From the NCBI GenBank assembly GCA_034659915.1, contig JAYEID010000013.1, forward strand, positions 10,627 through 74,626: a stretch of DNA of 64,000 bases, given 5' to 3'. Below, one piece after another: positions 1-11,291 of the stretch. Source of the DNA: Patescibacteria group bacterium (GTDB taxonomy: Bacteria > Patescibacteriota > WWE3 > JAUXAW01 > JAYEID01). A model generated the notes under the pieces. It searched no databases and was not told where the DNA came from. It saw only the letters and a list, made by a program, of their open reading frames with translations. Made by a program: the position numbers and the translations under genes. The stretch's first letter is position 1. Every line of letters starts with the position of its first letter.

Positions 1-7
1 ACATTAT

Positions 8-35
8 TTGGAGCTTAGGTATTAGAATTTAGTAT
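8..35 (+). promoter_or_regulatory. Conserved promoter-like module TTGGAG-16nt-TAGTAT upstream of dnaK
   Basis: TTGGAG (8-13), TAGTAT (30-35); the ATG at 48 has no SD, implying a very short leader. Confidence 0.4.
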
Positions 36-47
36 TTAAACATTATT

Positions 48-1973
48 ATGTCCAAGATTATTGGAATAGATCTAGGTACAACGAACTCAGTTATGGCTGT
101 AATGGAGGGTGGACAGCCAAAGGTGATTCCTAATGCGGAAGGAGACCGTTTAACTCCTTCTGTAGTTGATCCTGTGAAAAATATTGTAGGTGCGCAAGCA
201 AAGCGCCAGATGTTGGTTAATCCCAAAAACACTATTTACGCAATAAAGCGACTAATGGGTCGGAGGTTTGGTGATGATATGGTAACTAAGGCAATGGATA
301 TGGTTCCCTATAATATTGTGGAGGGAAAAAACAGCTTGGCTGTAGTGAAGGTGGAGGGGAAAGAATATACTCCGCAGGAAATTTCCGCAATGGTCCTTTC
401 TAAAATGAAGCGCGACGCCGAAGATTATTTGGGTGAAGAAATTTCGGAAGCAGTAATTACCGTTCCAGCCTATTTTGACGATTCTCAGCGAAACGCTACC
501 AAAGAGGCTGGTCAGATTGCTGGTTTTGAGGTAAAGCGAATTGTTAATGAGCCTACAGCTTCTAGTCTTGCTTATGGGTTGGCTGAGAAAGGCAATCAAA
601 AGATTGCAGTTTATGACCTTGGCGGGGGGACTTTTGATATTTCAATTCTTGAAATTGGTGAAGGAGTTTTTGAAGTACTTTCCACCAACGGTGATACCTT
701 TCTTGGTGGGGAGGATTTTGATGATCGAGTAATTGATTATCTTTTGGAAGAGTTTAAAAAGGAACAGGGTGTGGATCTTTCTACAGATGCGCAAGCAATG
801 CAGCGCCTTAAAGATGCGGCTGAGAAAGCAAAAATTGAGCTTTCCTCCAAACAAGAAACTAATGTAAACATACCCTACATTACAATGACCGATTCTGGTC
901 CCAAGCACCTGGATATTACCCTCACCCGTGCTAAGCTCGAGCAGCTTACTGATGATTTAGTTAAGAAAACTTTTGATCCTTGCCAAAAATCTCTGGATGA
1001 TGCCGGGCTTTCTTCGGAAGATATTGATGAAGTAATCCTGGTTGGTGGACAGACGCGTATGCCTAAGATTATTGAAGAGGTGACCGAGTTTTTTGGTAAG
1101 GAACCCCATAAAGGAGTGAATCCTGATGAGGTGGTAGGGGTTGGTGCGGCAGTGCAGGCGGGGGTGCTTAAGGGAGATGTGGAAGATGTTGTGCTCTTGG
1201 ATGTTACTCCGTTGACGCTGGGCATTGAGACTTTAGGTGGAGTAACAACCCCAATGATTGAACGAAATACTACTATTCCGACTTCCGCTTCTAAAACATT
1301 TTCTACAGCAGCAGATAATCAGACTTCTGTTGATATTCACGTCTTGCAGGGTGAAAGGGAAATGGCTGCAGATAATAAATCTTTAGGACGATTTATCTTG
1401 GACGGTATACCACCTGCACCGCGAGGAGTTCCCCAGATCGAGGTAACTTTTGATATTAATGCTGACGGTATTGTGGAAGTGAGTGCCAAAGATAAGGGAA
1501 CGGGTAAGGAGCAATCAATTAAAGTAAAAGGAGCAACAGGGCTTACTGAGGATGAGGTGGAGAAAATGAAACAAGAAGCTGAGGCACATGCAGAGGAAGA
1601 CAAGAAAAAGAGGGAAAAGGCAGAAGCGCGCAATCAAGCAGATAATGTAGCTTATACAGCGGAGCAAGCTTTGGAAAAAGCAGGTGATGAGGTGGATGAC
1701 GAAACAAAGGAAAAGATCAAAGGCATGGTAGAAGAACTTCGCGGTATGTTGGATAGTGCCAGCCCCGAGGAACTCAAGAGCAAATCCGAGGCTCTTTCTA
1801 AGGAGCTGCAAAAGATTGGAGAAGCGATTTATGGTTCGACAAGCTCACCACAGGGTGGTGAGCAAGCTAGTCCGGGTGGGGTTCAACCGGATGAGGAGGG
1901 AAGAATGTCCGGCGGTGATGAGAAGAAAGACGAAGACGAAGATGTTAAGGAAGGTGAAGTTGTAGACGAGTAA
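48..1973 (+). CDS. dnaK: Molecular chaperone DnaK (Hsp70)
   Basis: 641 aa; N-terminal [16 protein letters not shown] and the full Hsp70 ATPase and substrate-binding architecture; acidic C-terminus. Confidence 0.97.
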
Positions 1974-2281
1974 TGAAAGATGCAATTGTCGGGGCGTGCG
2001 GTATTTGCTGCAGCGCTTGCGAGTTACATGAAAAACTTGGGTGTTTTTGTAGTTCCGGAACAGAAAAACGAGCAAAAGAGAAAGTAGAATCCAATTGGAA
2101 TGGTAAAGGTGTCTTGTGTTTGGTTTGCAAATGCGCTGTGGAGCGTGGAGTTTCCTATTGTCCTCGAGACTGTGAAGATTTCCCTTGCGAGAAATTCAGA
2201 GAATGGGACTTTCCTTATGGTGAGGCTTATTTAGATATGCACAAGCGCCGACGTGAGGAGGCTGAATCGGGAGAGAAGTAA
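1973..2281 (+). CDS. Cys-rich small protein, DUF3795-like (putative metal-binding)
   Basis: 102 aa with ~14 Cys in CGxCCxxC ... CxxCxC ... CPRDCEDFPCEKF pattern typical of DUF3795; ATG overlaps the dnaK stop (TAATG), implying translational coupling. Confidence 0.55.
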   Translation: MKDAIVGACGICCSACELHEKLGCFCSSGTEKRAKEKVESNWNGKGVLCLVCKCAVERGVSYCPRDCEDFPCEKFREWDFPYGEAYLDMHKRRREEAESGEK

Positions 2282-2393
2282 AGAGGAGTGGATCCCTCGA
2301 CTTTGCTCAGGATTAGTTCGACTTGCGAAAAGTTCTGCTTCCGACAAATCGGAACCGAACTTTTTGAGTCTCACTAAATTTATCAATTGATAA

Positions 2394-2418
2394 AGGGCGC
2401 TCCTCGCCCTTTTTTTGT
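2394..2418 (+). terminator. Rho-independent terminator candidate after the dnaK/DUF3795 pair
   Basis: GGGCG-ctcct-CGCCC hairpin followed by TTTTTTT. Confidence 0.55.
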
Positions 2419-2632
2419 ATACTTAACTCATGGTTACAATCATCTTCGAATCGCACGGGACAACTTTTGATAATGAGAACGAGATTTCTTCCGGGCACGC
2501 GAATATTTAGTTATTTTCCCCCAACAAAAACTTTTACGTTGAAATTTTGCGGAACAATATATTGGCACGGCGACCCTGCCTTTTTGGTGGACAAGCGTCG
2601 TGCGTTTATGTTGGTTTTTTTATATTATAAGC

Positions 2633-2661
2633 TTCCAAAATTTTGCAATTGTTGGTAGAAT
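2633..2661 (+). promoter_or_regulatory. Sigma70-like promoter candidate for the NUDIX gene
   Basis: TTCCAA, 17 nt spacer, TAGAAT; about 50 nt upstream of the GTG start, which has an AAGGAGG RBS. Confidence 0.3.
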
Positions 2662-2709
2662 TAATTTGTAGGCAGGTACTTAGAAGAGATTTGGAAAGGA
2701 GGTTAGCCC

Positions 2710-3201
2710 GTGGGTATTGAAGGAAATGCAAATGTTTCGTGTGGGGTTATTGTCTCGCGGGGTGAACCCCGTATAGAAGAGTGGGAAGCCCTTTTTCTTG
2801 AAAGAGAGAATGGCAAGTTTTGTTTCCCTAGTGGGCATTGGGAGGTTGGAGAAGATTTACCGGCGTGTGCGGCAAGGGAATTCTGTGAGGAGACGGGATA
2901 TGAAGTGGCGCTCTTGGGTACGGTTGGAATATATACTCTCGAGCCCAAAACTGGTGGGGTCCCCTCACTAGGGGTAGTTTACTACGGTGTGCTGGGTGAG
3001 AAAGTAGGCGAACCGGAGGGCGGGCTGTGCTGGTTGGGTACTAAAGATATGCTTCTGATGCACGCTCTAAGACACGGTCTTTTTCTGCCGTGGCTGCACT
3101 TACTTGGCTTTTTCGAAAGCTGTGCCCGCTATCCAGCGTTTTTGCCTCTGGACATCTTTTCCTCAGGTAACCTTCCCCGCAATGAGCGGGAGATTGTTTG
3201 A
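2710..3201 (+). CDS. NUDIX hydrolase
   Basis: Nudix box GHWEVGEDLPACAAREFCEETGYEV (GX5EX7REUXEEXGU); GTG start preceded by AAGGAGG. Confidence 0.8.
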   Translation: MGIEGNANVSCGVIVSRGEPRIEEWEALFLERENGKFCFPSGHWEVGEDLPACAAREFCEETGYEVALLGTVGIYTLEPKTGGVPSLGVVYYGVLGEKVGEPEGGLCWLGTKDMLLMHALRHGLFLPWLHLLGFFESCARYPAFLPLDIFSSGNLPRNEREIV

Positions 3202-3282
3202 TAAAATCACTTTAAGATCCGTAACCCGGCGCTTATTTCGAGGACCGTCGGGTTCTTTCTTTTTTGTGATATAATTTTTCCA

Positions 3283-3624
3283 ATGAACATCGTTGCTTTT
3301 TTGTTTATACTTCTTGTTCGTGGGTTGGCGGTTTTTACTGCTTCTTATGTTATACCGGGTGTGGAGATAGCCTCTTTTGGGGTGGCAGTGATTACGGCGA
3401 TTGTTCTTGGGGTTCTCAATACTTTTCTCCGTCCGATTTTGATTTTCCTCACCTTACCTGTAAATATTTTAACTTTGGGGCTTTTTACCTTGGTTATAAA
3501 TATTTTAATTATTTTGCTTACTAGCAGGCTGGTTCCAGAGTTTAGTGTTTCTGGCTTGCTGCCCGCGTTAGTTTTTAGTATTATGTTGGTACTTACCAAT
3601 TGGTTTCTGAGTTTACTCGTCTAG
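3283..3624 (+). CDS. Small integral membrane protein, DUF360/phage-holin-4-like (YvlD-like)
   Basis: 113 aa, four predicted TM helices, motif LNTFLRPILIFLTLPVNILTLGLFTLVIN typical of the DUF360 family. Confidence 0.55.
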   Translation: MNIVAFLFILLVRGLAVFTASYVIPGVEIASFGVAVITAIVLGVLNTFLRPILIFLTLPVNILTLGLFTLVINILIILLTSRLVPEFSVSGLLPALVFSIMLVLTNWFLSLLV

Positions 3625-3626
3625 TT

Positions 3627-4172
3627 ATGGGTTCCAAAGAACACGGATTTTCACTTATTCCAATAATAATCATTGCCCTGGTTTTGGTTGGTGGGGTAGC
3701 CTTTGCGGTTAATTATATTGTGAGTACAGAGAAGGTCGCGGAAATCCCTAAAGAAGAAACGACGGTCACGGAAGAAGAAGAAGCAGCAGCAGCAGAAGAA
3801 GCAGGAGCAGAAAGAGAAGAAGAGGTAAAAAACCCGCGAGAAGTAGTTGAAGAATTTTACACTTGGTATATTTCTAATGAGGGCCGCCCTCTTTCCAGTG
3901 GGGCATATAAGGAAAGCCCTTACCTAGCTCCCAGTTTCAAAGAATATTTGGATGGCGGTTACGGTCGTGGGGCGGATCTTATTCTTTGTGCGCAAGATAT
4001 TCCACCAAGTTTTGAGGTGGAAGATGTTTCTATTTCGGGTAACACTGCGCGGGTTAATCTAAGACAAGCTTTTGGACCTAGCGGGAGGATTGTGCCGGTT
4101 GAACTTGAAAAGGTGGAAGGTGAATGGCTTATTTCCGATGTCCTTTGTGCCGATGTTGAAGATGTAGAGTAG
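3627..4172 (+). CDS. Membrane-anchored hypothetical protein (DUF3828-like C-terminal domain)
   Basis: N-terminal TM helix, an E/A-rich linker, then a C-terminal globular domain. The ORF track starts at 3600, overlapping the previous gene; the ATG at 3627 just after the upstream stop is the more likely start. Confidence 0.4.
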   Translation: MGSKEHGFSLIPIIIIALVLVGGVAFAVNYIVSTEKVAEIPKEETTVTEEEEAAAAEEAGAEREEEVKNPREVVEEFYTWYISNEGRPLSSGAYKESPYLAPSFKEYLDGGYGRGADLILCAQDIPPSFEVEDVSISGNTARVNLRQAFGPSGRIVPVELEKVEGEWLISDVLCADVEDVE

Positions 4173-4425
4173 GAAACCGGATAAATAAGAACTGTTATTT
4201 TGTACTACCCCAATTAAGAGAAGATCCCGAAGGGGTGAGCACAAATTGGACTGCAAAAGATGTAATTTTTGCCATTAACAGTGATCCCGAAACCTTTTGT
4301 GAATGGATGCAAGTTAGCTGCACCGAAGAAACAACGTCTGCGACCCTACCCCCCTTTGAGGGGTAGTTTTTTTTATTAGCTATGAATTAGTTCCTACCTC
4401 CTTTGAAAATTTTTGGATAATCCCC

Positions 4426-4869
4426 TTACAAATTTCTTTTGTTTCCGAGCCTGATATCTCTGTTGACGCTCGGGCAATGAGTAACGCAAGATTGTAAAGT
4501 GCTTCGTAACTTAGTGTCAGATCGAGACCATGAACCAGTAAGAAAATGTGGGTTAGGAGAACTGCAATTCTTTTGTTTCCATTTTGGAACTGGTGGCTCC
4601 TTATTAATTAGTTGATTAAAATACGCTGCGGCAGCATCGAGTATTGTGGGATTTAGATGTTTCTTTTCGTAAGTTTGTCTAACTGAGTTAAGAATACTTT
4701 CAAGTTTTCCGGGAATCCTTGAATCAAAAGGGGGAATTGGCTCATCAAATTGGATGAGGTGGTTAAACTGTTCAAAAATATTTTTGGATATTTTTTTTGT
4801 CTTATAAACTTTGTAATTATCAGGTTTGTTGGTATAATCATTTTTACAATAGAAAGGAGACAGTGCCAA
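4426..4869 (-). CDS. Hypothetical protein (147 aa), no confident family
   Basis: Complete ORF on the minus strand with an AAAGGAG RBS. There is a weak, degenerate resemblance to a Fido/Doc motif region (AAAY...NPHFLTGSWSR), which is not convincing. Confidence 0.4.
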   Translation of the reverse strand: MALSPFYCKNDYTNKPDNYKVYKTKKISKNIFEQFNHLIQFDEPIPPFDSRIPGKLESILNSVRQTYEKKHLNPTILDAAAAYFNQLINKEPPVPKWKQKNCSSPNPHFLTGSWSRSDTKLRSTLQSCVTHCPSVNRDIRLGNKRNL

Positions 4870-4938
4870 GCGGCCCGCGGGTTATCATATAAAATTCGTG
4901 TTGGCGAGTTCTCCGTTTATACATAAGGAGGGACGGCG

Positions 4939-5973
4939 ATGTCCAGGCGCAAAAACTCGTATGCGAGTTTTGGTAAGGGGGTAGATACACTTGAATCGTG
5001 GAGCTTTGAGGAACTAAAAAGGGCGGTGCAACTACCCGAAGATTTGTTGGAATGGGAGTCAACACCGTACCGCAAGGATCAGGCAAAAAGAGTTTTGCTC
5101 GGTGCTGCGCGAGAGTTACGCCTTGCCGCTCTTCGCGTTATAGCTGAGCAGATGAGACATGTAGCCCGTCGCGGGAGCCCCTCTTGGGCTGGTAGTTCCT
5201 ATTCCCCAGCTTTGCGCAACCGGGTACTCTTTTTATTGGAACAACTGTCCTCTGAGCAATTGCCACAGCCAACTGGGGGTCTGGTCTGGCAGCAAAGGTT
5301 CGCGATTGAGGAACTTGTTCTTAATGTGTTCGCTGATGAGTGTTTCGAAAGAACTCTGTACGGCGATAGCTTTGGTAGGGAATATTTTCATGTGTTTCAG
5401 CGGATTTGGGAATGTACGATAGCCTTGCCGGAGAAGCGCTATTCACCTACACGAGAGTTTGTTGAGCTGTACGATATGTTCTGGAGGAGATTTGTCGATA
5501 AAAGCAAAGCACCTCCTTTAGGTGCTCATATGGAAATGCTCCTTCGTAAGAGAGCTTACAGCAACACCTCAGAAGAGTTTTCGGAGGAGCTAAAAGAGTT
5601 CATTGACAGCGTGTGTGCGTGGTTAATTCGAGACGAAAAGAATGATGACCTGCTTCACTACATACGCCGTTATGGATTTTCGCAGACACGGCACGTACTC
5701 GAAAGACGTTTTTGGAAGATGCTCCTCAGGGCTGCGGAGCTGAGTGTGACAGATGACGAAGACCGCACTGCTTTTATGAAAATGCCTGTTCAGTGGGTAT
5801 TCGGGAATACAGAGGCTTGTAAGCACATCTCTAACCGGGTGGTTACCTCGTGGTGTGTAATGACAAGCCGCTCCATTGATGGCGCTGTGCGCGAGCCGTT
5901 CGAGGTTCCGCAATGGGTGAAGCGGACAAAGGTTTGGCTGGAATTTGAGAAGTGTGTGGAAACCTATACTTGA
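4939..5973 (+). CDS. Hypothetical protein (344 aa), Arg/Trp-rich, no recognised domain
   Basis: Long ORF with AAGGAGG RBS (4926-4932); local GC visibly higher than neighbouring genes; followed by a hairpin and T-run terminator at 6071-6118. Confidence 0.5.
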   Translation: MSRRKNSYASFGKGVDTLESWSFEELKRAVQLPEDLLEWESTPYRKDQAKRVLLGAARELRLAALRVIAEQMRHVARRGSPSWAGSSYSPALRNRVLFLLEQLSSEQLPQPTGGLVWQQRFAIEELVLNVFADECFERTLYGDSFGREYFHVFQRIWECTIALPEKRYSPTREFVELYDMFWRRFVDKSKAPPLGAHMEMLLRKRAYSNTSEEFSEELKEFIDSVCAWLIRDEKNDDLLHYIRRYGFSQTRHVLERRFWKMLLRAAELSVTDDEDRTAFMKMPVQWVFGNTEACKHISNRVVTSWCVMTSRSIDGAVREPFEVPQWVKRTKVWLEFEKCVETYT

Positions 5974-6070
5974 AGAAAACCTTACCAACCTAAACATATA
6001 CTTGAGCGTGCCTCTTGCGCGGCCGCCGTAAAGTACGCTCTTGACTGGGAGGTAAGGAGAACGTGACCTG

Positions 6071-6118
6071 AATGCTCTTCGAGCGCAGCATGCTTCGGAG
6101 AGCATTTTTCTTTTTTCT
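6071..6118 (+). terminator. Rho-independent terminator candidate
   Basis: AATGCTCTTCGAGC-gcagcat-GCTTCGGAGAGCATT hairpin followed by TTTTCTTTTTTC. Confidence 0.5.
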
Positions 6119-6435
6119 AAGGTTCCCTGAAAAGTTATGAAAACAGGTGACGTTCGTCATGCTTCTTCGTATTTAATAGAGGGTGTCTTCTTTCTTTTGT
6201 TCTTTTTTTGGTGGGTGGTTTTTGGTATTGTTTTGGAGAGGCGGGAAGGTAGGTGATTTCTACAACCCCATCCTTTTTCGGTAATAACTCCTGTATACCA
6301 TCCCTATAGCATTCTTTTTCCGAGACTTTGGTTTGCTTGGGGTGGCGGTTCGTTTGTGTTGTTCTTTTTTAGCGACTTTGCAACGGCCGGGAGATTTGGA
6401 GTTTAGTTTGGTTTAGGTAAGAAGCAAGGGGGTTT

Positions 6436-6729
6436 ATGATGGATAGCTGTGTAGATGATGTTTTGTTAGGATTTCGGCGCTGCTTGGGGAGAGTACCACT
6501 GAGAGAAGTGGAAGCTTTCTGTGTAACTCTTGAGGAATCGGATTCTTCCGGGGTTTTTGTGGAGAAGACCCCCCTCGGAAGGGAGTCTTTACTCTATCTG
6601 GTTGCTGAGATTTTGGAAGTTGATCCAGAGGTGCTACTTGTGGAGATGCGTAACTGGGTTGCGGATGTTCGTGCTATCCAGCATCTTAAGATGGAGGAAG
6701 CGGAGAGACGTCACCAGCCTTGTATTTAG
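6436..6729 (+). CDS. Small acidic hypothetical protein (97 aa)
   Basis: ORF with AAGGGGG RBS 7 nt upstream; followed by its own terminator (6757-6800). Confidence 0.45.
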
Positions 6730-6756
6730 TTTGTATTTAGGTTGGTTTTTCCTTTT

Positions 6757-6800
6757 AGGGGGTCTAGAATCGCGCTGGGTTCTAGATTCCCTTCTTTTTT
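6757..6800 (+). terminator. Rho-independent terminator
   Basis: GGGGGTCTAGAATC-gcgctgg-GTTCTAGATTCCC hairpin followed by TTCTTTTTTAT. Confidence 0.6.
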
Positions 6801-6823
6801 ATAATTGCAAAGAAGGTATTGTG

Positions 6824-7114
6824 ATGGTAGTATCAAAGATAGAAATGAGTTTAGAAAAAGAAAAAAAGCAAGAAATAATTGAAGAATTTAGTAACCACGA
6901 GGAAGATACGGGATCTGCCGAGGTGCAGATAGCTCTTCTTACTGAAAAGATTAGTAAGCTTTCTTCGCATCTTAAAGAGCACAAGAAGGATGAGCACTCG
7001 CGGAGAGGCTTGTTAGGAATGGTTGAAAGAAGAAGGAAACTGCTTCGTCATCTTGAAAAAGAAGACGAAAAGCGGTATAATGCTCTTGTTCAGAAGTTGA
7101 AATTAAGAAAGTAG
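6824..7114 (+). CDS. rpsO: 30S ribosomal protein S15
   Basis: [49 protein letters not shown] matches S15; AAGAAGG RBS 10 nt upstream of the ATG at 6824. An alternative start at 6842 (MSLEK...) matches S15 N-termini better. The ORF-track start at 6530 is a spurious extension. Confidence 0.9.
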
Positions 7115-7208
7115 GAATTAAGAGGTTCAATGGCATCAGTGGCGTCGGTAGGAATTTTCTACTGAGACTATTGGTTCTATTGACCTCTTTAGTTCCTCAA
7201 TAAGTTTT

Positions 7209-9329
7209 ATGTCCGAGATTGTGAAAAAAGAAATAGAATTAGCTGGAAGGACTTTGAGTCTGGAACACGGGCGTGTTGCGGAACGTGCAAATGGTGCTGT
7301 TATTGCCCAGTATGGTGATACCATGGTTTTGGTAGCAGCAACCATAGACGAACCGCGTGAAGGAATAAGTTACTTTCCTTTAAGGGTTGATTTTGTAGAG
7401 AGGCTTTATGCGGGGGGGATAATTAAGGGTTCCCGCTGGGTAAAGCGTGAGGGCCGTCCTTCTGATGAGGCTACTGTTACTGCACGGATGATTGACCGGT
7501 GTATTCGCCCCTTTTTCCCTGAAGGTATGCGTCATGATGTTCAGCTTCTTATTTTACCCCTTTCTGTTGATCAAGAAAACGATGCGGGACTTCTTGCTTC
7601 TGTCGGTGCTTCTGCGGCCCTTGCTATTTCCGATATTCCCTGGGAGGGTCCTATTGCTACTACCCGCGTTGGTTATTTAGAAAATGAAGATGAGTTCCTT
7701 TTGAATCCAACTAATGGCCAGCTTGATCAGAGTGTTATGGATCTTATTGTTTCGGCAACCGAAGAACGTGTAGTTATGTTGGAAGCAGATGCGGAGGAAG
7801 TTAGTGAAAAAAAGATTAAAGAGGGTATTGATTTTGCGCGATCTGGTCAAGATAAGATTATTGATCTTATTCACGAGATAAAGTCCGAAGTGGGTAAGGA
7901 GAAGTTAAGTTTGGAGGATTTGGGATTGGAGGAAGAGGAAGAAAGTGTGAAGCAGGCAAAGGAGGAAGTGTCCGATTACATTCGTGAGAATTTTATTGAG
8001 GAGATTTTGGAAGACGCTTTGGTTGATTCCGATGAATTGGAAAGGTACCGGAAGATTTTGTATGAGGAGTTCGAGGGCAGGCTCACAAAAAGCGATATGA
8101 GTAATCTGCTTAGTAAAGTTCTTAAAGAAGCGGTACGAGAAGATATTTTGAAAAATGAACGCCGTTTGGACGGTCGGGGGATTAAGGAAGTACGCCCCTT
8201 AGAAATGGAAATTGGGATGCTGCCCCGTACCCACGGTTCTGCGCTCTTTAAGCGCGGTTCCACGCAAGCATTAACTGTGGCTACTTTGGGTTCCCCTTCT
8301 TTGGAACAAATTTTTGAGAGTATGACTGGCGAATGGACTAAGCGTTATATTCACCATTATTCTTTCCCACCTTTCTCTGTGGGGGAAACAGCACCTCTCC
8401 ATGGTCCGGGTAGGCGGGAGATTGGCCACGGCTTGTTGGCAGAGCGTGCGCTGAGACCAGTTTTACCACCGCAGGAAGAATTTCCTTATACAATGAGACT
8501 AGTTTCGGAAATCCTTTCGTCTAACGGTTCTAGCTCAATGGCGGCTACTTGTGGTTCAACTTTAGCTCTTATGGATGCGGGTGTTCCTATCAAGACTCCT
8601 GTGGCCGGGATTGCCATGGGTTTGGTCGAAGGCCCCAAAGGCTCTTATAAGGTTGTTACGGATATGGCCGGTACGGAAGATTTCTTTGGCGATATGGATT
8701 TTAAGGTTACCGGAACACGAGACGGGGTTACTGCTATTCAGTTGGATGTAAAAAATGCAGGTTTAACCGATGAGATTATTGAGGACGCTCTACAAGGGGC
8801 ACGTGCTGCGCGGTTGGAGATTCTAGAGGATATGGCCAATGTTATCGGTGAACCAAGAAAGAGTTTGTCAGAATATGCACCCCAAATAACTAGTGTTCAG
8901 ATTGATCCGAAGAAAATTGGTAAAGTTATTGGTCCGGGGGGTAAGACTATTCGAAAAATTATTGAGGAAACCGGTGCACAGATTGATGTGGACGACGACG
9001 GTACAGTATCGATTACCGCAGACGGTTTGGAAAGTATGGAAAGCGCAAAGGAAATGATTGAGAATTTGGTTGAAGAGGTAGAAGTTGGGAAGATTTATGA
9101 AGGCAAAGTTACTCGTGTGGTTGACTTTGGTGCTTTCGTGGAGATTCTTCCTGGTCAGGAAGGTTTGGTGCATGTTTCGGAAATGGCTCACCGATTTGTA
9201 AAAGATCCTCACAATGTGTTGTCCGAAGGTGATGAGGTTGAGGTTAAGGTGACAGAGATAGATGATCGGGGTAGAATTAACCTTTCAATTAAAGCTCTAA
9301 AAGATAGACCTCACCGTGAGCGTAAGTAA
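7209..9329 (+). CDS. pnp: Polynucleotide phosphorylase (PNPase)
   Basis: 706 aa; two RNase PH domains, a KH domain (GKVIGPGGKTIRKI) and a C-terminal S1 domain; canonical rpsO-pnp arrangement. Confidence 0.97.
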   Translation: MSEIVKKEIELAGRTLSLEHGRVAERANGAVIAQYGDTMVLVAATIDEPREGISYFPLRVDFVERLYAGGIIKGSRWVKREGRPSDEATVTARMIDRCIRPFFPEGMRHDVQLLILPLSVDQENDAGLLASVGASAALAISDIPWEGPIATTRVGYLENEDEFLLNPTNGQLDQSVMDLIVSATEERVVMLEADAEEVSEKKIKEGIDFARSGQDKIIDLIHEIKSEVGKEKLSLEDLGLEEEEESVKQAKEEVSDYIRENFIEEILEDALVDSDELERYRKILYEEFEGRLTKSDMSNLLSKVLKEAVREDILKNERRLDGRGIKEVRPLEMEIGMLPRTHGSALFKRGSTQALTVATLGSPSLEQIFESMTGEWTKRYIHHYSFPPFSVGETAPLHGPGRREIGHGLLAERALRPVLPPQEEFPYTMRLVSEILSSNGSSSMAATCGSTLALMDAGVPIKTPVAGIAMGLVEGPKGSYKVVTDMAGTEDFFGDMDFKVTGTRDGVTAIQLDVKNAGLTDEIIEDALQGARAARLEILEDMANVIGEPRKSLSEYAPQITSVQIDPKKIGKVIGPGGKTIRKIIEETGAQIDVDDDGTVSITADGLESMESAKEMIENLVEEVEVGKIYEGKVTRVVDFGAFVEILPGQEGLVHVSEMAHRFVKDPHNVLSEGDEVEVKVTEIDDRGRINLSIKALKDRPHRERK

Positions 9330-9474
9330 AAGACTGCATAACTAATCTCCTTGAACATCTCTGAGGGTTCCCATAAACTAGTGACTAGATGTTAGCTTCT
9401 AAAAACTCTTCAAGTAGTAGTGGGATTGATTGGCAAGAATATTGTTTACTGGGCGGTAATTAATAACTCAATCT

Positions 9475-10572
9475 ATGTCCAAAGATAATAAAGATTTACA
9501 CCAGGAAATTCTTTTTCCCGAAATAGAGGAGCTGGCACATTTGGTAGAGGAAACTACACTCCCTCCTAAATTAGAGGATAAGTTGCAACGGATGGTGGAA
9601 AGTTTGCGGCGAATGGCAAGGTTTAGAACTTATACCTCGGAGTATGAATCTATATCTCGGTACATTGAGCTGGCTACAAAAATACCATGGGATGTTCGTA
9701 CTGAAGATAATTTAGATATAAAGAGAGCAAGAAAAATTTTAAATGCAAACCATTATGGTATGGAGAAAGTAAAAGAAAGAGTTTTGGAATACATAGCAGT
9801 TTTAAATTTGACTCAGGAGAAGAGAGGTCGAAAAATGGAACGAGCTACTGGTCCCTTAGCTTCTACCAAAGCATCTGTGTTGTGTTTCGTTGGCCTTCCT
9901 GGAATTGGTAAAACGTCAGTTGCTTATTCTATTGCAGAAGCTTTGGATCGGAAATTTGTCCGGGTTGCTATGGGTGGTGTGGCAAGTTCGGTGCATCTTA
10001 GAGGACGCTCCCGTGCCTACCCACAGTCAGAGGCTGGGCAGGTTGTAAAGGGACTAGTTCGTTGTGGGAGCAAAAATCCAGTTATACTTATGGATGAGAT
10101 AGATCGTATTTCGGAAGAAGCGCGGACAGAAGTAATGGGTGTCCTTTTAGAACTCTTGGATCCAGAGCAAAATGCGGCGTTTCAAGACCATTACTTGGAT
10201 TATCCCTTGGACTTATCTGAGGTTCTCTTTATTTGTACTGCAAACCACAAGAGAGGTATTGCTAATGCGGTATTGGACCGGTTAGAGGTTATTGAAATGC
10301 CTGCTTATACTGATGAAGAGAAGAAGGTTATTGGTCGCGATTACCTTTTACCTCGGGTTCTTGATGAGTGTGGTTTAGATTCAAGTCAAGTTGAAATTGA
10401 GGAAGAGCTTTGGTCAAGTATAATTCGCCCGCTTGGCTATGACGCTGGGATTAGGACCTTGGAGAGAACTATTCAGGGTATTTGTCGCAAAGCTGCTAAA
10501 GAGATTGTGGAAGAAGGTGTAAGTAAGGTAAAGATAACTGAGGATAATATTGATCAGTATTTACCTAAGTGA
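9475..10572 (+). CDS. Lon-like AAA+ ATPase lacking the S16 protease domain
   Basis: 365 aa; strong match to the Lon ATPase module (Walker A GLPGIGKTS, Walker B VILMDEIDR, ...LDRLEVIEMPAYTDEEK...GIRTLER). The gene ends before any Ser-Lys protease domain and lacks most of the Lon N-domain; the next gene is UDG. Confidence 0.8.
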   Translation: MSKDNKDLHQEILFPEIEELAHLVEETTLPPKLEDKLQRMVESLRRMARFRTYTSEYESISRYIELATKIPWDVRTEDNLDIKRARKILNANHYGMEKVKERVLEYIAVLNLTQEKRGRKMERATGPLASTKASVLCFVGLPGIGKTSVAYSIAEALDRKFVRVAMGGVASSVHLRGRSRAYPQSEAGQVVKGLVRCGSKNPVILMDEIDRISEEARTEVMGVLLELLDPEQNAAFQDHYLDYPLDLSEVLFICTANHKRGIANAVLDRLEVIEMPAYTDEEKKVIGRDYLLPRVLDECGLDSSQVEIEEELWSSIIRPLGYDAGIRTLERTIQGICRKAAKEIVEEGVSKVKITEDNIDQYLPK

Positions 10573-10593
10573 TAAAAATCTTGTGTTTTTCAT

Positions 10594-11196
10594 ATGTCTA
10601 GAATTTTGAGACAAGTTAGAAAACAAATACAAAGATGTGACAAGTGTCGTTTGGCTCGGACAAGAACTAATACCGTTCCTGGAGAAGGGCCCAAGGATGC
10701 AGAAGTAGCCTTTGTTGGGGAGGCTCCAGGTTATAATGAGGATAGGGAGGGACGACCATTTGTAGGAAAGGCAGGGAAGCTTTTGGATAAGTTGCTGCGT
10801 TCTGTTCAAATTAGTCGGAAGGATGTTTGGATTGGTAATGTGATTAAATGCCGACCACCAAATAATCGTAGTCCTCACGTTGATGAGTTGCGGGCTTGCG
10901 AGCCTTATCTTGACTTGCAGTTAAGGGAGATTAGTCCCAAAGTTGTCTGTACCTTAGGAAGGTATGCAACAGAGCATTTCCTGGGAGATATAAAAATTTC
11001 TGAGGTACATGGTACTCCTTTCAATGCAGGGAGATTTGTAGTCTTTCCCCTTTTTCACCCGGCAGCAGCTTTGCGGAGTAAAAATGTTAAACGTGAGCTC
11101 CAGGAGGATTTTCGCAAAATAACTGATTTATTGAATGGAGATTTGAAAGCAGAAGAAGTGAAGAACCAGGATGAAAACCAGATAAGTCTGTTTTGA
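10594..11196 (+). CDS. Uracil-DNA glycosylase, family 4
   Basis: Motifs GEGPxDAEVAFVGEAPGYNEDREGRPFVGKAGKLL and HPAAALR; an N-terminal Cys-containing segment (CDKC) typical of the thermophilic-type UDG. Confidence 0.8.
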   Translation: MSRILRQVRKQIQRCDKCRLARTRTNTVPGEGPKDAEVAFVGEAPGYNEDREGRPFVGKAGKLLDKLLRSVQISRKDVWIGNVIKCRPPNNRSPHVDELRACEPYLDLQLREISPKVVCTLGRYATEHFLGDIKISEVHGTPFNAGRFVVFPLFHPAAALRSKNVKRELQEDFRKITDLLNGDLKAEEVKNQDENQISLF

Positions 11197-11291
11197 ATAT
11201 TTATTTGAGTATTTTAACTTAGAAACACTTGAGCACCAATTTACTATATGTTTGTATGCTTTAGTGTTTTATGTTTTGATGACCTTTATTT

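Follow-up and report, generated by a model that had tools for sequence, protein, structure and literature searches.

What lies between the membrane-protein genes and the rpsO-pnp genes of a member of the Patescibacteria (candidate phyla radiation, CPR), and did it arrive there as a cassette? The window considered here, i.e. the whole 64-kb stretch of contig JAYEID010000013.1 that was analysed, comes from a metagenome-assembled genome that is small and reduced. The original prediction on this DNA had placed three open reading frames (ORFs) without an assignable family in this part of the window and had read them as horizontally acquired cargo, candidates for a toxin/immunity or anti-phage function. 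The ORFs were found where it had put them, at 4426–4869 (minus strand, 147 amino acids, TTG start), 4939–5973 (plus strand, 344 amino acids; gene X in the following) and 6436–6729 (plus strand, 97 amino acids), and its account of the flanks held as well, with a PF04020 membrane protein and a 190-amino-acid transmembrane protein on one side and rpsO and pnp on the other. The explanation that best accounts for the locus as a whole, to which we would give somewhat better than an even chance, is that of a partly decaying and partly maintained patch that contains an intact member of a rare protein family, X, preceded by a short RNA leader that serves as a translational switch.

Gene X and the candidate structured leader in front of it

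Gene X (4939–5973, + strand; MEA2020446.1, U9M98_01880) is an intact, real gene under purifying selection, with a ratio of non-synonymous to synonymous substitution rates (dN/dS) of 0.20 by comparison with its ortholog P0002 in contig L001, the two proteins being about 70% identical. By comparison with strain L155 there are only two substitutions in 8.9 kb of the window and both fall in gene X, at 5461 and 5743, where they are non-synonymous (V175I and S269G).

The family is very small. A word-indexed search of 5.8 billion clusters returned X itself and P0002 only, and an exhaustive HMMER scan of 1.84 billion cluster representatives gave eight matches, one of them a junk repeat, which leaves seven credible matches including the representative of X; beyond its own cluster these are P0004, P0005, P0006, P0007, P0008 and P0010, with 21–36% identity. 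Further members were sought by a word-based profile search, which gave only three, and by a scan of genome contigs, which returned only the L006 contig again; the DNA pattern DxxCAW-84 nt-RFW had 22 matches in metagenomes, none of them to a family member (0/22). The known family thus stands at about ten members, with three diverged paralogs held in tandem by a single contig, L010. Phage, plasmid and IMG/VR collections contained no homologue, no Pfam, NCBIfam, PADLOC or PHROG family was matched (PADLOC-DB 2.0 was tested with X and six further members), and a profile search with X against the sequences of the PDB gave nothing below E 0.97. Across the family W182, F185, D223, W228, F258, W259, P283 and R311 are invariant, most of them aromatic, and C226, R257, G246 and T250 nearly so.

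Modelling with AlphaFold2 from a two-sequence alignment was unusable (predicted local distance difference test, pLDDT, 47.5), and the addition of six distant homologues raised pLDDT to 84.1, with a predicted template modelling score (pTM) of 0.83 for an all-alpha structure of 17 helices. Structural modelling and comparison, which had been proposed for the 344-amino-acid protein at the outset, therefore yielded a confident all-alpha model on eight sequences and, with Foldseek, no significant structural neighbour in the PDB or BFVD. On the basis of this model X is predicted to be soluble and all-alpha, and its family is very rare and unannotated. It shares its all-alpha nature with the HEAT/ARM/PUF-like alpha-solenoids, and its top non-significant Foldseek matches were ATRIP, CRM1, Pumilio domains and designed repeat proteins; it differs from them in having no sequence repeat and no match to a Pfam repeat family, with a best Foldseek E of 0.11 and TM-scores of at most 0.31. 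The resemblance to helical-repeat proteins would appear to be one of general architecture only.

Transcription signals around gene X are readily recognised. A strong sigma-70-type promoter block occupies 4798–4838 (+ strand), with a −35 element TTGTAA (4811–4816), a 16-nt spacer containing TG and a −10 element TATAAT (4833–4838), i.e. an extended −10 promoter scoring 10/12 in the promoter scan. This block, TGTCTTATAAACTTTGTAATTATCAGGTTTGTTGGTATAAT, is nearly unchanged in L001 and L006 despite X proteins that are only about 70% and 36% identical to that of the window. The Shine-Dalgarno (SD) site AAGGAGGG was read from the sequence at 4925–4932, and an intrinsic terminator follows the gene at 6071–6118, a hairpin (6071–6107) followed by a U-run (dG −24.3, z −3.6, 0/200 shuffles as good). 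The L006 contig (also L012; CAYTXD010000244.1) is only 2 kb long and is labelled 'Candidatus Micrarchaeota archaeon'. Its positions 797–837 hold a bacterial sigma-70-type promoter block nearly identical to 4798–4838 of the window, and it also carries an operon of PIN and a weakly Phd/YefM-like protein; the contig probably belongs to the Patescibacteria and was mis-binned.

Between the promoter and the SD site of X lies a candidate structured RNA leader of 63 nt (4854–4916, + strand). The motif, of about 60 nt, precedes seven of the ten family genes, namely those of the window, L001, L007, L008/L009 and all three paralogs of L010, and is always found on the sense strand and 10–25 nt upstream of the SD site. 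Its invariant strings are CCAAGCGGC(C/U) and (G/A)UGUUGG. The closing helix P1 (4856–4860 with 4910–4914) pairs GGAGA with UCUCC, and GAGGC with GCCUC in L010; P2 (4865–4869 with 4901–4905) pairs (G/A)CCAA with UUGG(C/U) and is followed by an invariant 5′ bulge of six bases (4870–4875, + strand), which reads GCGGCC in the window and GCGGCY in the family. P3 is an 8-bp hairpin (4876–4883 with 4893–4900) whose sequence varies by lineage with its pairing kept, as in CGCGGGUU/AAUUCGUG, CACGCGGU/ACCGUGUG and CACGACGG/CCGUUGUG.

Comparison of the seven leaders supports this fold. RNAalifold gave three stacked helices of 18 pairs, seven of which have changed on both sides, with such double changes in all three helices. 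Paired cells made up 88.9% of the alignment in this register versus 34–50% when the partners were slid by 1–3 columns, and the covariation score was 0.347 versus 0.19, with none of 500 shuffles reaching the observed score; a plain MAFFT alignment and a model-fitted one gave the same result. The alignment contains ten G-U cells and the fold is on that account specific to the sense strand. The leaders of the window and L001 differ at seven of their 63 positions; three of these changes lie inside P3, and each of them leaves it paired, at a divergence of 54% for the synonymous sites of the two X genes. Beyond this pair, the leader is kept before family members whose proteins are only 22–36% identical. 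A covariance model gave the seven leaders 60.9–78.7 bits; over 265 kb, a set that included all of the window as well as 22 unrelated metagenome loci, every other score stayed at or below 13 bits. Of 80 viral loci preselected for CCAAGCGGC...RTGTTGG the best scored 19.5 bits, and they were set aside as chance matches.

No Rfam family accounts for the leader. Rfam 15 (4227 families) gave no match at E up to 5 in 4100–7300, and none at E up to 10 in 4835–4950 besides an 8-bit chance match to an antisense lncRNA; there was likewise no Rfam match at the leaders of L001 or L007. The 5′ half recalls the acceptor and D-arm of class II tRNAs, a resemblance that neither ARAGORN nor Rfam supported; both found nothing, and a tRNA-like reading was rejected. 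A leader peptide was also considered, as a 9-codon ORF with a GUG start is present in the window and L001 only, and was judged unlikely because the leaders differ in length by 1–2 nt and have no conserved start codon. The compensatory changes, together with the constant position and strand in seven sequences from about four lineages, mark the leader as a candidate conserved, structured cis-regulatory element, potentially a new cis-regulatory RNA that is absent from Rfam and attached to a very rare protein family.

The leaders in L010 may be larger and more complex than the 63-nt motif. The spacers of the three tandem X paralogs of this contig, ~560–595 nt in length (2776–3367, 4415–4972 and 6026–6605), share further conserved blocks besides it; one of these is a 10-bp stem, CAUUGGAGGG...CCCUUCAAUG, that encloses ~45 nt.

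How the leader may act

An anti-SD sequence (UCUCC or CCUC), complementary to the SD site of X (UUCUCC in the window), makes up the 3′ strand of P1, and the 5′ strand of P1 is itself SD-like. When the leaders were folded without constraints, the anti-SD strand paired with the real SD site in five of seven and P1 formed in the other two; with constraints, the P1 and SD-sequestered states differed by −5.8 to +2.4 kcal/mol over all seven leaders. These calculations suggest that the leader is probably a translational switch controlling translation of X. In such a switch the anti-SD strand would leave the ribosome-binding site free when paired within P1 and would block it when paired with the real SD site, 10–15 nt further downstream. 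A factor that bound the invariant bulge together with P2 would shift the balance, favouring P1 and freeing the ribosome-binding site. This factor would most likely be a protein, possibly X itself, as in the leaders of ribosomal-protein and threonyl-tRNA synthetase (thrS) genes, and less likely a small molecule. In our analysis the preferred order is thus a protein effector (possibly X), then a small-molecule ligand, then no regulatory role.

The proposed arrangement is familiar from translational riboswitches and from protein-binding autoregulatory leaders (ribosomal-protein genes, thrS). Like these, the X leader is placed directly upstream of the SD site, has invariant unpaired bases between covarying helices, and has a closing-helix strand complementary to the SD site that gives rise to two exclusive folds; in contrast to them, it matches no Rfam 15 family and is represented by seven examples, all before one rare gene family. 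A bolder proposal is that leader and X form an undescribed regulatory pair, seemingly confined to the Patescibacteria, either with X as a new kind of all-alpha RNA-binding protein that acts on its own translation, as repressor or activator, through the invariant GCGGCY bulge or with the leader as a new class of riboswitch. We regard this as a tentative idea, with appreciably less than an even chance of being right.

A number of observations weigh against a translational switch of this kind and temper the confidence placed in it. The motif is not obligatory, as the X genes of L005, L006 and L011 lack it. Folding of single sequences gave z-scores that are not significant (−1.4 and −0.3). The seven instances come from about four independent lineages, three of the instances being L010 paralogs and two the closely related window and L001, and the covariation, scored ignoring phylogeny, is on this account only suggestive. 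The helix between SD and anti-SD cannot covary because the SD sequence is fixed, which leaves energy calculations as the sole basis for the switch. The leader transcript and its start are deduced from the promoter consensus. As for X as a putative RNA binder, the isoelectric points (pI) in the family range from 5.0 to 9.4, and the invariant residues, mostly aromatic or hydrophobic, could be purely structural.

Two other accounts of the leader were considered. It could be a new riboswitch for a small molecule or ion, with a pocket made of the GCGGCY bulge together with the pairs that close P2 and P3. The bound ligand would favour P1 and thereby uncover the ribosome-binding site, X acting on the ligand or responding to it. 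Invariant unpaired nucleotides between covarying helices, a position immediately 5′ of the SD site and a P1 3′ strand complementary to it, as in many translational riboswitches, would all suit this proposal, as would the retention of a separate copy with a different P3 sequence by every one of the three L010 paralogs and the lack of a matching Rfam family. X, however, has no recognisable enzymatic or transport domain that might hint at a ligand, the conserved core is small for the purpose (~15 invariant nucleotides in one irregular hairpin), three genes of the family manage without the motif, and the representatives are too few to judge; we consider a riboswitch unlikely.

The other account denies the leader any regulatory role, treating it as ancestral leftover sequence or as a 5′ stem-loop that protects the mRNA, the complementarity to the SD site then being incidental to a purine-rich sequence. 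mRNA-stabilising 5′ hairpins are common, the sample is small, the single-sequence z-scores are as given above, and related sequences can outscore shuffles without any structure according to the documentation of the tool. Against this, the motif has been kept despite divergence of the protein to 22–28% identity and in genomes whose DnaK identity has fallen to 70%, and synonymous sites have already gone halfway to saturation between the two closest members; moreover, double compensatory changes occur in all three helices, an invariant six-base bulge would be superfluous in a merely protective hairpin, and in each of the seven leaders the two states have nearly the same energy. A leader without a regulatory role is thus improbable, and a translational switch remains our preferred interpretation.

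Decayed neighbours and the origin of the segment

The 147-amino-acid ORF that faces X is one frame of a Doc/Fic toxin pseudogene (4380–4806, − strand) and not an orphan protein. As listed, the ORF has no match in Pfam or NCBIfam, and Doc was seen only after two frames had been joined. Translation of the minus strand in all three frames placed the halves of the gene in different frames: the listed ORF holds the N-terminal half only (FDEPIPPFDSRIPGKLESIL...), with an FDEPIPPF block at 4726–4749, and the catalytic motif HQFQNGNKR (4569–4595) and the C-terminal half are in another frame, which ends at a stop at 4380–4382. Joining the frames gave a 143-amino-acid sequence that scored 35.9 bits on Pfam Fic PF02661 (cut-off 24) and 50.7 bits on TIGR01550 DOC_P1, 'death-on-curing family toxin' (cut-off 38.65), and that matched PHROG 577 'Doc-like toxin' at E 1.5e-17. 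A tblastn search of the window with the intact 151-amino-acid Fic protein of L008 aligned in frames −2 and −3 (46% and 43% identity, joint E 1e-19) and placed the junction of a +1 frameshift at 4594–4607. The homology ends at ~4797–4806, directly against the promoter block of gene X, and the sole in-frame start is the TTG at 4869, which has no SD and lies inside the conserved promoter and leader of X. An assembly slip is an unlikely source of the frameshift because two further assemblies from other sequencing runs carry the same sequence over the Doc region (L156, 100% identical; L155, 99.85%). The population is also present in the runs SRR26901925 and SRR26901928.

By sequence, then, this copy retains the catalytic motif and exceeds the profile cut-offs but lacks an uninterrupted frame with a start codon and ribosome-binding site. 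It shares with Phd-Doc (Doc of phage P1) the Fic/Doc core and the HxFx(D/N)GNKR motif, here HQFQNGNKR, and its ortholog in L008 (43–46% identity) is an intact 151-amino-acid Fic protein encoded after an overlapping 57-amino-acid acidic partner, the usual layout of an antitoxin-toxin operon. It differs in being frameshifted and in having no start codon, ribosome-binding site or antitoxin, as expected of a pseudogene and not of a working module. A search by tblastn with the 57-amino-acid antitoxin of L008 and the 93-amino-acid antitoxin of L006 found no antitoxin in 4100–7000. A Phd-Doc type toxin-antitoxin (TA) module at the segment was ruled out, as the toxin is frameshifted and no co-oriented antitoxin gene lies upstream. 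Doc phosphorylates EF-Tu; enzymatic activity from the copy in the window would not be expected. No remnants of Doc or of an antitoxin were found in L001, L002, L005–L007, L010 or L011.

The gene upstream has also decayed. The 190-amino-acid protein (3600–4172, + strand) is a truncated ortholog of a 327-amino-acid transmembrane protein in L001 with a C-terminal Germane domain (PF10646). In a tblastn search residues 1–197 of the latter align through the stop at 4170–4172 (56% identity, E 6e-66), and past this point the alignment meets in-frame stops ('VE*ETG*IRTVILYYPN*EKIPKG*'). The last 44 residues of the Germane domain recur in another frame at 4229–4360 (52% identity, E 2e-11), so that remnants of both ends, ~4173–4253 and 4229–4360, are found within 4173–4362 (+ strand), with the middle (residues 198–282 of the L001 protein, ~85 residues) deleted in the window; by blastn, 4257–4352 matches 1109–1205 of L001 at 81%. 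A hairpin with a T8 run at 4346–4374 (+ strand; seven pairs, five of them G-C, in the terminator scan) represents the old terminator of this gene, with a dG of −11.8 and a weak z of −1.8. The membrane-protein gene has thus lost its Germane domain, of which fragments remain, and the stop at 4170 is common to the window and the sister contig L002.

In contrast with the 147-amino-acid ORF, for which the lack of an assignable family did not stand, the 344- and 97-amino-acid proteins did remain without a match in Pfam, NCBIfam, PADLOC, PHROG or the PDB. The 97-amino-acid gene (6436–6729, + strand; MEA2020447.1, U9M98_01885) encodes a small acidic protein of pI 4.7. It is a real gene under purifying selection: L002, L003 and L004 carry an ortholog (91% identical) upstream of rpsO, and the comparison with L002 gave 12 synonymous and 10 non-synonymous changes (dN/dS 0.23) and a length difference that is in frame. 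Its start is probably the second ATG, at 6439, which gives 96 amino acids as in the relatives. It is known only from close relatives, always upstream of rpsO, with or without X. The notion that it and the 344-amino-acid gene form a co-occurring pair was not borne out, since the small gene persists in L002–L004, where X is absent, and no relative of it was found near other X homologues; the two are independent.

The terminator of the small gene (6757–6800, + strand) is a 15-bp stem (6757–6792) followed by a T-run (dG −23.2, z −5.1). Both hairpin and T-run terminators of the original prediction, this one and that of X, are real in that neither was matched by any of 200 shuffles. An 11-nt tandem duplication (TTGTATTTAGT TTGTATTTAGG; 6719–6741) lies across the stop codon of the small gene and is present as a single copy in strain L155. 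The spacer between this gene and rpsO is 94 nt in the window versus 248 nt, with different hairpins, in L002.

The T-rich non-coding stretch reported between the two genes is present as well; the gap spans 5974–6435, and ~317 nt of it (6119–6435) lie 3′ of the X terminator and have an AT skew of ~−0.35. From 6253 onwards this spacer is kept in the sister contigs that lack X, and 6253–6729 matches 6270–6740 of L002 at 90.4% (blastn). It contains a 39-amino-acid ORF without an SD (6137–6256, + strand; MKTGDVRHASSYLIEGVFFLLFFFWWVVFGIVLERREGR) that has one very hydrophobic stretch and lies almost wholly inside the part missing from L002; the stretch recalls type I toxins or small membrane peptides, and T-richness alone may account for it.

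Whether these genes were imported together, as a toxin/immunity or anti-phage system of the 344- and 97-amino-acid proteins with or without the 147-amino-acid ORF, can be judged by composition, by the distribution of the segment among relatives and by its neighbours elsewhere. Gene X is indeed richer in GC than its surroundings, with a GC content of 0.493, or z +2.3 relative to 41 long ORFs of the window (mean 0.434, sd 0.026), and the highest GC content at third codon positions (GC3) of all 41 (0.515; mean 0.360, sd 0.049), a point in favour of import. The description of the whole segment as GC-elevated did not hold: 4208–6252 has a GC content of 0.451 (z 0.6), only X is GC-rich and the Doc part is AT-rich (0.370), and the largest tetranucleotide deviation in the segment (z 2.2) is unremarkable, on a par with other parts of the window. 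At every locus with neighbouring genes the X homologue exceeds them in GC content; the excess thus characterises the family and does not mark an island.

The distribution among relatives at first sight also fits acquisition, as the segment is present or absent between close strains. In the sister contigs L002, L003 and L004 (87–90% nucleotide identity) 66 unrelated bases replace 4208–6252, the order being membrane protein, 66 unrelated bases, 96-amino-acid gene, rpsO and pnp; microhomology or retained sequence at the L002 junction was not above shuffled expectation. L001, however, is an outgroup to these strains, its membrane protein being 64% identical to that of the window versus 89% for L002, and it carries the X ortholog P0002 at the same place, directly after the orthologous membrane-protein gene and with the same promoter and leader. 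The far more distant L008/L009 (DnaK 69.7% identical) has a 309-amino-acid, ~25% identical family member head-to-head with an intact antitoxin-Fic operon, and dnaK and NUDIX are again in the neighbourhood. Since X occupies the same place in the more distant L001 and L008, it is ancestral at this locus and the polymorphism is explained by a deletion of 4208–6252 in the sister lineage. No integrase or transposase ORF, tRNA, or flanking or junction repeat was found at the segment.

Six contexts extend far enough upstream of X to be compared, and three of them show a TA operon head-to-head with it: Doc in the window, Fic with a 57-amino-acid partner in L008/L009, and PIN with a 93-amino-acid protein that weakly matches Phd/YefM in L006; none is found beside X in L001, L005 or L010. 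The pairing of Doc with X is old, as it is common to the window and L008, and that L006 has another family of toxin speaks against a functional link between X and one toxin in particular; the adjacency may reflect old synteny or a hotspot of insertion. The 197-nt gap between the antitoxin-Fic operon and the X homologue in L008 contains a perfect palindrome, TGACCAC-TG-GTGGTCA (~9886–9902), that is likely to be an operator and for which no equivalent was found in the window. The literature on Patescibacteria toxin-antitoxin systems and RNA motifs yielded nothing specific.

These neighbours, the Doc remnant inside the segment, the three tandem diverged paralogs of L010, a pattern common in conflict systems, and the match of the Fic domain of the remnant to the candidate defence models PDC-S23 and PDC-S04 would all be in keeping with a defence role. 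What survives of the proposed toxin/immunity or anti-phage function is that one of the three ORFs derives from a TA toxin. That toxin is inactivated and its antitoxin missing; X, six further members of its family and the 97-amino-acid protein match 0 families of PADLOC-DB 2.0. Imported cargo is the least likely of the explanations considered here, given the same chromosomal neighbourhood of X in distant relatives, its GC excess at every locus with neighbours, the lack of mobility genes, tRNA and flanking repeats, the absence of PADLOC or PHROG matches for X and the small protein and of X homologues from phages, plasmids and IMG/VR, the occurrence of the small gene apart from X, and the dead Doc.

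Of the original prediction of an acquired segment, the presence/absence polymorphism thus stood, and the ancestral position of X, the typical composition and the lack of mobility genes spoke against the remainder; the X and 97-amino-acid genes are syntenic in relatives and the 147-amino-acid ORF belongs to an ordinary family. From these comparisons the segment is best described as a patch of lineage-specific chromosomal genes, of which part is decaying (Doc, Germane) and part maintained, and it does not have the appearance of a recently imported toxin/immunity cassette.

Surrounding genes and significance of the locus

The upstream flank comprises dnaK (48–1973), a Cys-rich DUF3795-like ORF (1973–2281), NUDIX (2710–3201) and the gene of the PF04020 membrane protein (3283–3624; E 2.7e-28), which precedes the truncated transmembrane gene. 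The ORF at 1973–2281 encodes 102 amino acids, its ATG overlapping the stop codon of dnaK; its match to DUF3795 is below threshold (18.8 bits versus a cut-off of 22.6) and it has 78% nucleotide identity to L002. Downstream are rpsO (6824–7114; PF00312, E 6.6e-34) and pnp (7209–9329), followed by genes for a Lon-like AAA protein, UDG and RNase J. Across the whole window ARAGORN found no tRNA and no Rfam family reached its gathering score. Synonymous divergence from L002 over 1–11200 of the window differs strongly by gene, from 0.20 for the 97-amino-acid gene, 0.32 for the transmembrane gene and 0.41 for pnp to ~1.3 for dnaK and rpsO and saturation for lon and udg, a spread that suggests recombination mosaicism between the lineages of the window and L002.

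Two features of this locus call for caution in the annotation of candidate-phyla genomes, in that an apparent orphan protein turned out to be a frameshifted Doc toxin and an apparent 'island' the result of differential gene loss in a reduced genome. The part worth following up lay outside the original prediction, namely the candidate cis-regulatory RNA, for which the evidence from seven sequences is consistent. X belongs to a family of about ten members amid collections of billions of proteins, and its confidently predicted fold matches nothing that has been solved. Most Patescibacteria have not been cultured, and the majority of the genes specific to their lineages are still opaque. A cis-regulatory RNA is open to tests in vitro, for which the organism need not be grown, and a short structured leader that seems balanced between exposing and hiding the ribosome-binding site offers an experimental handle on the X family. 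Should the leader prove to be a riboswitch, its ligand would be a clue to what the proteins of this orphan family do.

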